Assembly: GCF_003018255.1 (NCBI RefSeq)
Contig: NZ_CP027440.1
DNA from: Escherichia coli
Lineage (GTDB): Bacteria; Pseudomonadota; Gammaproteobacteria; Enterobacterales; Enterobacteriaceae
Reading direction: 5' to 3' (one strand)
DNA length: 64,000 bases
Under the pieces are notes generated by a model. The model did not search any database, was not told the DNA's origin, and saw only the letters and a program-made list of their open reading frames with translations. A program made the translations under genes and the position numbers. This document shows, one piece after another, positions 39,967 to 45,350 of the stretch (position 1 is its first letter; each line of letters opens with the position of its first letter).

Positions 39967-42716
<2,750 letters not shown>

Positions 42717-42917
42717 TTATTTCGCATCCTCTTCGCAAACACAGTGCTGACAATTCAGCAGCCTGATATTAGGCACTCAACTAATACGCTGCTGACTCTG
42801 TCCTCAACACCAGATATTTTCCCTAACCCAATAGTGTATGAGAAAAGATTTAACGCTGATAAACTAATCCTTTATGGTTAGGAGAAAAAATAATGTGATT
42901 ATTCTGGGCTCTTAACA

Positions 42918-42931
42918 TTGATCGTTATCAA
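42918..42931 (-). promoter_or_regulatory. FNR (CRP/FNR-family) binding site upstream of ydhY
   Basis: Perfect match TTGAT-CGTT-ATCAA to the FNR consensus TTGAT-N4-ATCAA, about 200 bp upstream of the ydhY start in an AT-rich region. Confidence 0.7.
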
Positions 42932-43171
42932 TTAAAATCACAAAGCAAGAAATTATAAGTGAACTGATATTTATTATCATTTGAAATAAATTTAACTTAA
43001 CCGACAATTATTTGTGAAGTTCATCGCAGAAAATAAAAATAACTTTATCGCTATAAATTAAAATACACACCGAAATTCGTATAATTTCAGCAGTTGTTAT
43101 TTAGAATGATTAACTGGACCGCAACTGAAGCAAGAATATCAGGATGAAGCTTACCGCCTCATCCTGAATGG

Positions 43172-43381
43172 TCATTTTACCAGTGCGTTAATGACGGTTT
43201 CCATCGCCTGCTTTTCCAGCTCACTGCGCTGAATGCGTTTATTGGCTAATGCTGTACGTAATACGCCTGCGATAACAATATGCTTTGGTTCCTGCCCCAG
43301 ATCGCGCATTTCCAGCACAACTTTACCGACAACTCTGCACATTTCTCGGTACAGTTCATCCTCTTTTGTCCGATTTCCCAT
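43172..43381 (-). CDS. fumD: small fumarase D (formerly ydhZ)
   Basis: 69 aa ORF MGNRTKEDELYREMCRVVGKVVLEMRDLGQEPKH...; recognised as YdhZ/FumD. Confidence 0.85.
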   Translation of the reverse strand: MGNRTKEDELYREMCRVVGKVVLEMRDLGQEPKHIVIAGVLRTALANKRIQRSELEKQAMETVINALVK

Positions 43382-43716
43382 TCTTTATACCTATTTATCA
43401 TGCCAACTATCAGCATATATCAATCTAACCAATTAAACAAAAATCAAACAAAATCAGACAAATAACGCGATAAATTATTTTAACTGTAGCAATTGAGCGA
43501 TGATGTATTTATACACCGGATGAACTTTCACTTATCTTCACAGTGACAACCCCGGCACCAGACGTTGCGCAAACAGCGAAGTTTTTGCGTAACCTTTTCC
43601 CTGGAACGTTAAATCTTTGATAACAATTTATTGTCTAACAAGTTGTATATTTTTTGAAACGCTGTTTTTGTTTTCCTTTTGGATTAATTTCAGCGTATAA
43701 TGCGCGCCAATTGACT

Positions 43717-43732
43717 CTTGAATGGTTTCAGC
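43717..43732. promoter_or_regulatory. candidate Cra (FruR) operator upstream of pykF
   Basis: CTTGAATGGTTTCAGC; reverse complement GCTGAAACCATTCAAG matches the Cra half-site GCTGAAAC; pykF is a known Cra-repressed gene. Confidence 0.5.
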
Positions 43733-43937
43733 ACTTTGGACTGTAGAACTCAACGACTCAAAAACAGGCACTCACGTTGGGCTGAGACACAAGCACACAT
43801 TCCTCTGCACGCTTTTTCGATGTCACCTATCCTTAGAGCGAGGCACCACCACTTTCGTAATACCGGATTCGCTTTCCGGCAGTGCGCCCAGAAAGCAAGT
43901 TTCTCCCATCCTTCTCAACTTAAAGACTAAGACTGTC

Positions 43938-45350
43938 ATGAAAAAGACCAAAATTGTTTGCACCATCGGACCGAAAACCGAATCTGAAGAGATGTTAGCT
44001 AAAATGCTGGACGCTGGCATGAACGTTATGCGTCTGAACTTCTCTCATGGTGACTATGCAGAACACGGTCAGCGCATTCAGAATCTGCGCAACGTGATGA
44101 GCAAAACTGGTAAAACCGCCGCTATCCTGCTTGATACCAAAGGTCCGGAAATCCGCACCATGAAACTGGAAGGCGGTAACGACGTTTCTCTGAAAGCGGG
44201 TCAGACCTTTACTTTCACCACTGATAAATCTGTTATCGGCAACAGCGAAATGGTTGCGGTAACGTATGAAGGTTTCACTACTGACCTGTCTGTTGGCAAC
44301 ACCGTACTGGTTGACGATGGTCTCATCGGTATGGAAGTTACCGCCATTGAAGGTAACAAAGTTATCTGTAAAGTGCTGAACAACGGCGACCTGGGTGAAA
44401 ACAAAGGTGTGAACCTGCCTGGCGTTTCCATTGCCCTGCCAGCACTGGCTGAAAAAGACAAACAGGACCTGATCTTTGGTTGCGAACAAGGCGTAGACTT
44501 TGTTGCTGCTTCCTTTATTCGTAAGCGTTCTGACGTTATCGAAATCCGTGAGCACCTGAAAGCGCACGGCGGCGAAAACATCCACATCATCTCCAAAATC
44601 GAAAACCAGGAAGGCCTCAACAACTTCGACGAAATCCTCGAAGCCTCTGACGGCATCATGGTTGCGCGTGGCGACCTGGGTGTAGAAATCCCGGTAGAAG
44701 AAGTTATCTTCGCCCAGAAGATGATGATCGAAAAATGTATCCGTGCACGTAAAGTCGTTATCACTGCGACCCAGATGCTGGATTCCATGATTAAAAACCC
44801 ACGCCCGACTCGCGCAGAAGCCGGTGACGTTGCAAACGCCATCCTCGACGGTACTGACGCAGTGATGCTGTCTGGTGAATCCGCAAAAGGTAAATACCCG
44901 CTGGAAGCGGTTTCTATCATGGCGACCATCTGCGAACGTACCGACCGCGTGATGAACAGCCGTCTCGAGTTCAACAATGACAACCGTAAACTGCGCATTA
45001 CCGAAGCGGTATGCCGTGGTGCCGTTGAAACTGCTGAAAAACTGGATGCCCCGCTGATCGTGGTTGCTACCCAGGGCGGTAAATCTGCTCGCGCAGTACG
45101 TAAATACTTCCCGGATGCCACCATCCTGGCACTGACCACCAACGAAAAAACGGCTCATCAGTTGGTACTGAGCAAAGGCGTTGTGCCGCAGCTGGTTAAA
45201 GAGATCACTTCTACTGATGATTTCTACCGTCTGGGTAAAGAACTGGCTCTGCAGAGCGGTCTGGCACACAAAGGTGACGTCGTAGTTATGGTTTCTGGTG
45301 CACTGGTACCGAGCGGCACTACTAACACCGCATCTGTTCACGTCCTGTAA
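43938..45350 (+). CDS. pykF: pyruvate kinase I
   Basis: ORF track is 542 aa in-frame from 43722; true start is the internal ATG giving 470 aa [40 protein letters not shown]. Confidence 0.95.

Follow-up and report, generated by a model that had tools for sequence, protein, structure and literature searches.

A two-promoter control region of Escherichia coli pykF with a Cra operator and a leader open reading frame that is probably translated and kept by selection

The 556-bp interval between fumD and pykF, the gene for pyruvate kinase I, lies in a 64,000-nucleotide (nt) stretch of the Escherichia coli chromosome (contig NZ_CP027440.1), which we call the window and to which all position numbers refer. 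Our analysis indicates that this interval is very probably a two-promoter control region of pykF with a Cra operator and a translated, selected leader open reading frame (ORF), ynhH. In particular, pykF has a distal promoter (P1) and a proximal promoter (P2), the Cra operator occupies +9 to +24 of P1, the leader ORF is kept by selection, and a hairpin and a small RNA (sRNA) target block are common to both transcripts. Judged from aligned loci, the position of the start codon of the ORF and its open frame are conserved over five Enterobacterales families, while the peptide is not. An earlier note on this DNA had described the long interval, a −10 hexamer, a Cra-like palindrome and a long pykF leader. 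The length is confirmed by the coordinates (from the end of the fumD start codon at 43381 to the pykF ATG at 43938), and the observation as a whole is confirmed, its interpretation being right in substance yet incomplete. The promoter, the Cra site and the long leader are already in databases and in published maps of transcription start sites (TSSs), to which the re-derivation of a textbook Cra-controlled promoter from sequence adds nothing. A by-product may matter: between the Cra operator and the pykF start, an ORF of 60–85 codons has stayed open through the history of most enteric families.

For comparison, we used 80 pykF loci (L002–L081) from different Enterobacterales species; counts over 81 loci comprise the window and this set, and some counts were made on 82 sequences. 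Within E. coli, positions 43100–44100 of the window are matched in 5425 of the 5426 complete genomes, with identities of 95–100%. The elements of the distal promoter and its operator are the following.

43673–43678, plus strand: weak −35 hexamer TTCCTT, with a 17-bp spacer, within a conserved T-rich block (43662–43682)
43696–43701, plus strand: −10 hexamer TATAAT of pykFp/P1, 5′ of the mapped TSS, with an exact match in 75 of 82 sequences
43702–43708, plus strand: GC-rich discriminator GCGCGCC, read from the sequence
43709, plus strand: distal TSS (P1), 229 nt 5′ of the ATG (PMC3415461, supplement)
43717–43732, both strands: Cra (FruR) operator CTTGAATGGTTTCAGC, reading GCTGAAACCATTCAAG on the minus strand, at +9 to +24 of P1

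The distal start is documented in two published TSS maps, which were made from RNA enriched for 5′-triphosphate ends with terminator exonuclease and whose E. coli coordinates we converted from U00096.2. Specifically, the pykF TSS of MG1655 at 1753493 corresponds to window position 43709, with 88 reads, a 5′ untranslated region (5′UTR) of 229 nt and the printed upstream sequence ...CAGCGTATAATGCGCGCCA (PMC3415461, supplementary file 2). The differential RNA-sequencing map of Salmonella places start P732 at the same base behind the same upstream sequence and classes it as sigma-70 (PMC3293720, supplementary file 2). The −10 hexamer (43696–43701) thus has its start at 43709, within the 6–8 nt downstream spacing of a sigma-70 promoter. 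A −35 hexamer close to TTGACA at a spacing of 16–18 bp was not found, the best candidate being TTCCTT with 2 of 6 matches and only its two leading T's conserved, and a consensus promoter scan did not call P1.

A TATAAT is unremarkable by itself, being under-represented in the window (18 occurrences against 24.8 expected), and the 14-mer Cra consensus RSTGAAWCSNTHHW occurs twice in the 64 kb against 0.54 expected, which alone is not beyond chance. The motifs are nevertheless real, because they are conserved across loci and coincide with mapped starts. In most of the 80 Enterobacterales loci, the distance from TATAAT to the 12-mer operator core TGAATGGTTTCA is 23–24 nt, and the pair lies 218–303 nt 5′ of the ATG. 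The arrangement of −10 and operator is kept in Escherichia, Salmonella, Klebsiella, Serratia, Yersinia and Hafnia, and also in Erwinia, Dickeya, Pectobacterium and Xenorhabdus. Of 82 sequences, 67 carry the exact core, and the others mostly have one mismatch. On the minus strand, 43719–43732 reads GCTGAAACCATTCA and matches the 14-mer consensus with 0 mismatches. Both positions given in the earlier note are exact, the hexamer being a working −10 by the published TSS maps and the palindrome a full consensus match.

P1 is the same locus as pykFp (Bledig, Ramseier and Saier 1996; RegulonDB/EcoCyc entry), which is reported as Cra-repressed. The pykFp promoter is printed with its end at TATAATGCGCGC, at −231 (PMC2759082). 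The 1996 start was described as predicted; the mapped start at −229 lies 2 nt downstream of it. The case for dismissing the distal TATAAT and Cra site as a relic, with pykF transcribed only from starts near its ATG, comes from rapid amplification of cDNA 5′ ends (5′RACE) in glucose-grown JM101, which missed the distal start and returned ends only at −34, −80 and −97 (PMC2759082). We give this explanation hardly any credence: the distal start is present in two independent primary-transcript maps (PMC3415461, PMC3293720), the −10 and operator are near-invariant over the order, and the 5′RACE authors themselves suspected that some of the short ends may be processing products (PMC2759082). In Salmonella, the distal start P732 carries the flag 'P, Alt', read here as a ppGpp-dependent alternative TSS, with listed counts of 6 and 43 (PMC3293720, supplement). 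By its sequence, the GC-rich discriminator GCGCGCC would fit stringent control of P1.

Taken from the mapped TSS at 43709, the operator at +9 to +24 is in a position consistent with repression. Cra repression of P1 is therefore predicted from this placement, in agreement with the literature. Ramseier (1995) and Saier and Ramseier (1996) are said to have described a Cra site at or downstream of the start as the repressing arrangement. Cra bound at such a position blocks initiation or promoter escape; it is released by fructose-1-phosphate or fructose-1,6-bisphosphate, and pykF is thereby inducible by sugar. Consistent with this placement, pykF is listed among the Cra-repressed glycolytic genes (PMC8085971), and a passage of PMC2759082 cites Bledig (1996) on Cra repression of pykF. 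The statement that the Cra site lies "197 nt upstream of the ATG" (PMC2759082) disagrees with the location at −221 to −206 seen here. A second match to the Cra consensus, AGTGAAACCTTCAT (44266–44279, minus strand), lies 328 nt into the pykF coding sequence (CDS) and was treated as chance. It is not kept at synonymous sites, having 0 mismatches in just 8 of 81 orthologues, and on its sequence it probably arises from the codons for YEGFT.

The leader between operator and pykF is filled by an annotated ORF.

43736–43930, plus strand: ynhH leader ORF of 64 codons, with TTG at +28 and TAA 8 nt before the pykF ATG (RefSeq b4817 / YP_010283910.1)

The start codon of ynhH lies downstream of the mapped TSS and is kept as a start codon in other species. 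Specifically, an NTG follows the operator by 2–6 nt in 69 loci (TTG in 59, ATG in 6 and GTG in 4), and the ORF that it opens runs for 60–85 codons in 66 of the 69. Six further loci, from Pectobacteriaceae and Rosenbergiella, have the same pattern from a GTG at +7 or +8. Relative to the A of the pykF ATG, the ORF ends anywhere from 15 nt upstream to 14 nt downstream; its stop either precedes the ATG by 5–15 nt or overlaps it (ATGA; up to +14 in Yersinia). Altogether, 72 of 81 loci keep the frame set by the start codon open as far as the pykF start. Between lineages this frame varies relative to that of pykF, indicating that insertions and deletions have been tolerated while the ORF stayed open.

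The open frame could in principle be a by-product of a G-poor, C/T-rich leader, in which case ynhH would be spurious. Shuffles that preserve dinucleotides leave a mean longest open stretch of 57–60 of about 70 codons, the total number of stops is not depleted, and two of the three frames of the E. coli leader are open, so that composition alone looked sufficient by the maximum open frame of shuffled leaders. This candidate was overturned by the test of the start-codon frame. The frame that is open is specifically that of the conserved TTG, ATG or GTG (in 66 of 69 loci, whereas just 7 of 138 control frames reach as far), this codon varies only among start codons, and, with one representative for each of 23 genera, the stops in the three frames number 0 in the start-codon frame against 65 and 71 in the other two. 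On these frame counts, composition as a complete explanation is already refuted, and we regard a spurious ynhH as very unlikely.

A second alternative, which we consider unlikely but take more seriously, is that ynhH encodes a small protein with its own function and precedes pykF by ordinary operon organisation. It has a RefSeq name and a Pfam family, YnhH-like (PF23642), which ynhH matches from end to end (E-value 6.5e-50; 167.6 bits against a gathering cut-off of 27). Database homologues are found only in Escherichia, Citrobacter and Salmonella, with identities of 70–92% in E. albertii, Citrobacter and Salmonella. Furthermore, the ratio of nonsynonymous to synonymous change (pN/pS) in the ynhH frame is 0.36–0.41 for E. 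coli versus Salmonella or Citrobacter, under the neutral value of about 0.85 obtained by permutation (P 0.002–0.006). These are, however, the only pairs with such a ratio: the remaining clade pairs give 0.56–0.76, mostly not significant with two nominal Pluralibacter pairs (P 0.011 and 0.027), and in Serratia, Yersinia, Rahnella and Pantoea the peptide is indistinguishable from neutral though the frame is open. In Serratia, Yersinia, Erwinia and Dickeya, the ORF occupies the same position as in the PF23642 members, with no peptide similarity to them beyond what the conserved DNA blocks impose. Shifts of frame relative to pykF are tolerated, as is a frameshifted C-terminus in S. bongori, where ynhH ends at an ATGA overlap with pykF, and the conserved nucleotide blocks lack a three-base periodicity.

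Start, end and frame of ynhH are thus kept open by selection with the peptide free to vary, and from this comparison we conclude that selection appears to act on leader translation, not on the product. As far as could be checked, this order-wide leader ORF, conserved in position and not in sequence, is undescribed, as is the covarying hairpin described below. Among the database YnhH models compared (P0005, P0007 (76 aa) and P0011 (80 aa)), those of 76 residues, from Salmonella and C. rodentium, begin with the ATG that overlaps the −10 hexamer (TATAATG), 5′ of the mapped TSS; their N-termini are, by position, probably mis-annotated.

The leader is also interrupted by a second promoter, which lies inside ynhH.

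43821–43835, plus strand: conserved block TGTCACCTATCCTTA with 80–99% column conservation, holding the P2 −10 TATCCT (43828–43833, C at −13)
43840, plus strand: proximal TSS (P2), 98 nt 5′ of the ATG

In MG1655, P2 is the TSS at 1753624, with 145 reads, a 5′UTR of 98 nt and the printed upstream sequence ...GATGTCACCTATCCTTAGAGCG (PMC3415461, supplement). It corresponds to Salmonella P733, labelled 'Sigma 38', and coincides with pykFP4–P5, for which Olvera (2009) describes a sigma38-like −10 (PMC3293720, supplementary file 2; PMC2759082). No block of the leader is more conserved than the one built around its sigmaS-like −10, CTATCCT. The listed Salmonella counts for P733 are 8 and 34 (PMC3293720, supplementary file 2). 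The long leader claimed in the earlier note thus holds for the 229-nt transcript from 43709, but pykF is also transcribed with a 98-nt leader, and the long one is occupied by an annotated gene. Likewise, the 5′-end mapping that the note called for is found in the published maps, which contain the distal start together with the one nearer the ATG. The note had set a mapped start near the ATG against its proposal; this opposition is not valid, because both starts coexist.

Downstream of P2, and hence in both transcripts, two further elements precede the pykF start.

43871–43896, plus strand: covarying hairpin with outer pairs GCUUUC/GAAAGC and inner pairs GG/CC, found by RNAalifold
43907–43927, plus strand: conserved single-stranded block CATCCTTCTCAACTTAAAGAC, an sRNA target region by conservation and by Salmonella AdiZ data

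RNAalifold gives the hairpin five pairs, every one with compensatory changes. Among 35 Enterobacteriaceae sequences, 76% of the cells are paired, against 34–51% for slid partners, and the covariation score is 0.455, against 0.215 in shuffles (0 of 500 as high) and 0.08–0.14 for slid partners. Among 63 distinct order-wide sequences, 74% are paired against 29–50%, with a score of 0.312 against 0.151; this alignment was made with the covariance model and leans towards it. As for the single-stranded block, Salmonella AdiZ pairs within it, since the pykF change C-22G (window 43916) is compensated by AdiZ G10C, and chimeras of ArcZ with the pykF 5′UTR are also reported in Salmonella (bioRxiv 10.1101/2025.06.06.658255).

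Could the leader instead sense a metabolite as a structured cis-regulatory RNA, for example a riboswitch, thermometer or attenuator? A conserved length of 227–291 nt, conserved blocks and the one covarying hairpin speak for it, yet we judge it highly improbable. The region 42700–44300 has no Rfam match at E-values up to 1. A global fold is absent: shuffled sequences fold better than the E. coli leader itself (z +1.5 and +1.7 for the leader), the mean over 16 genera is z +0.16, and the local window from −95 to −28 reaches a mean z of only −0.7. The single short hairpin is followed by AAGUUUCUCCC with no U-tract, and the terminator scan calls none there, so that no terminator or attenuator was found. 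A long-range pairing of operator RNA with the first pykF codons, present in the minimum-free-energy fold of E. coli, was rejected, as it is no better than shuffles over 17 genera. The search for structured elements that the earlier note had proposed therefore yielded one hairpin, and neither a known RNA family nor a global fold. The leader is C-rich throughout, its GC skew running from −0.16 to −0.38, whereas that of the pykF CDS is close to 0.

That the peptide has drifted while start, end and frame were kept suggests that leader translation is a control step for pyruvate kinase I. It is possible, and we hold it with somewhat less than even confidence, that the P1 leader ORF is a conserved translational gate, in which the C-rich transcript escapes Rho or decay only while it is translated and ribosomes are delivered to pykF. 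The steps of such a gate would be as follows. Cra would block P1. On the P1 transcript, ynhH spans the P2 region, the hairpin and the sRNA target block, up to 8 nt before the AUG. Translating ribosomes would cover a C-rich, G-poor and mostly unstructured RNA that might otherwise be a substrate for Rho or RNase, would melt the hairpin, and would stop close enough to re-initiate at a pykF start whose Shine-Dalgarno sequence is weak. Transcripts from P2 would bypass leader translation and expose the hairpin and sRNA site directly.

Several points weigh against a control region with a translated leader ORF. The TTG of ynhH has no recognisable Shine-Dalgarno sequence, and the experiment behind the ynhH annotation was not traced in the literature; neither pykF nor ynhH was found in the supplements of Nakahigashi 2016, Stringer 2021 (bioRxiv) or Adams 2021. 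P2 accounts for the majority of the mapped 5′ ends (145 against 88 reads) and its transcripts lack the ORF start, so that pykF is translatable without the leader ORF. Among the 81 loci, those of Proteus, Photorhabdus, Budvicia and Plesiomonas lack the leader ORF, and the −10 and operator persist in the first three, indicating that the ORF is not needed for Cra control. Stops occur in all three frames beside the pykF ribosome-binding site, which makes a stop there automatic for any open frame and no separate evidence of coupling. To these are added the 5′RACE result above and the Rho-shielding and coupling steps, which we infer and count on the same side.

If translational gating is nevertheless at work, the control of flux would combine Cra at the DNA, leader translation and the sRNAs ArcZ and AdiZ, with a bypass through P2, an unrecognised layer on a central glycolytic enzyme in at least five Enterobacterales families. 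In practice, pykF is often hit by adaptive mutation and often targeted in metabolic engineering, and constructs with or without the leader may differ.

Upstream of P1, two further DNA motifs recur.

43565–43572 and 43585–43592, unstranded: octamer TTGCGCAA and its degenerate copy TTGCGTAA, 20 bp apart, a candidate factor-binding site
43655–43669, unstranded: inverted repeat TGAAAC-GCT-GTTTTT, a KdgR-type-like box at −54 to −40 of the distal TSS

Of 78 loci, 46 have the palindromic octamer TTGCGCAA, or a one-base variant, 5′ of the pykF promoter, where 2.9 would be expected; the extended consensus is TTGCGCAACAA. Its offset from the −10 is often fixed, at −110 or −111 in Serratia, Yersinia, Hafnia, Dickeya, Pectobacterium and Xenorhabdus, at about −131 to −135 in E. 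coli, Salmonella and Citrobacter, and at −76 in Pantoea and Erwinia. In several genera the motif occurs twice (in E. albertii as two perfect copies, 20 bp apart), and neither the flanks nor the upstream gene is conserved. A terminator-like call with a 5-bp stem (43563–43578) overlaps the octamer. In Salmonella and Citrobacter (L004, L011, L015), about 100–130 nt 5′ of the −10, the octamer is followed by a GC-rich hairpin, GCCGCCC...GGGCGGC, which by its sequence looks like the terminator of the upstream gene.

With one mismatch allowed, 53 of 80 loci contain the KdgR-type core RAAAYRNYRTTTY (GAAAC-N3-GTTTY), where 2.1 would be expected. Its position is −53 in Enterobacteriaceae but −5 in Yersinia, Hafnia, Pectobacteriaceae and Erwinia; in 13 loci (L055, L057–L060, L065, L067–L069, L073–L075, L077) the repeat lies over the TSS (−5 to +8), replacing the GC-rich discriminator of E. 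coli. Against the KdgR consensus, which we take to be AATRAAAYRNYRTTTYATT, the core fits at 43656–43668 and the outer bases mismatch in E. coli. Rodionov (2004) predicted pykF as a KdgR target, as cited in a passage of PMC6127512. At about −75 to −60 of the TSS, Enterobacter and Salmonella (L019, L024, L027, L030, L032, L004) carry a TGTGAATCTGCACAGA-like sequence with one good CRP half-site. E. coli has diverged at this place (window 43630–43650), which fits the reported lack of CRP binding to the E. coli pykF promoter in an electrophoretic mobility shift assay (PMC8085971).

The interval is bounded by two genes, and a stop-free stretch precedes the second.

43172–43381, minus strand: fumD (ydhZ) CDS, the divergent neighbour (NCBIfam NF007630, E-value 1.4e-45; RefSeq)
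43722–43937, plus strand: 72 stop-free codons in frame with pykF, not a real extension, open only in E. coli and E. albertii
43938–45350, plus strand: pykF CDS, pyruvate kinase I, 470 aa (RefSeq; chains in the Protein Data Bank begin at its Met)

The earlier note correctly traced an over-long ORF call (43722–45350, 542 aa) to a pykF frame that remains open for 72 codons 5′ of the true start. Solved PykF chains of 470 aa (for example 1PKY) start at residue 73 of the long ORF, which is the Met at 43938. As a real protein the extension was rejected: it is not conserved, has no Pfam match, and has a pN/pS of about 1 or higher. Over the 80 loci, the upstream opening of the pykF frame is 1–67 codons elsewhere and full only in E. 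coli and E. albertii, and on this comparison the over-long ORF is an accident.

On the other side, fumD adjoins pykF in just 9 of 80 Enterobacterales loci; its TSS is at window position 43405, weak and with a leader of 24 nt (PMC3415461, supplement). A 12-bp terminator-like hairpin lies just 3′ of fumD (43139–43167, minus strand). By the alignment and conservation profile, conservation linked to pykF starts at about 43650. A foreign pykF copy on a 73.8-kb plasmid of E. coli B19374 (NZ_CP142917.1, 6624–7072) is 88% identical to the window from 43652 on, the exact upstream edge of the conserved promoter, and a 'hypothetical protein' is annotated beside it at the place of ynhH.

In its operator, the pykF region resembles fruBKA, pfkA, ptsHI and edd-eda, which we take to be other promoters that Cra represses from an operator at or 3′ of the start. 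All share an asymmetric palindrome, GCTGAAAC/GTTTCAGC, with one consensus and one degenerate half; unlike the others, the pykF operator has a leader-ORF start codon within 3 nt. In its 5′UTR, pykF resembles the sRNA-targeted leaders of rpoS and ptsG, with C-22, the base whose mutation AdiZ compensates in the work on AdiZ and ArcZ acting on Salmonella pykF, inside the block at 43907–43927. That work used Salmonella reporter fusions, and its scope did not extend to how sRNA pairing relates to leader-ORF translation or the hairpin.

The closest parallels to ynhH are mgtL-mgtA, tnaC-tnaA and toiL-topAI, in which translation of the leader ORF, and not its product, reportedly controls the downstream gene. 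These three leaders control their downstream genes, whereas an effect of ynhH on pykF is proposed from sequence only. At 60–85 codons the pykF leader ORF is also far longer than typical leader peptides, no stalling motif was identified in it, and an internal promoter bypasses it. Like them, it is an ORF in a long 5′ leader with its position kept and its peptide unconstrained, and a link to Rho access is plausible.

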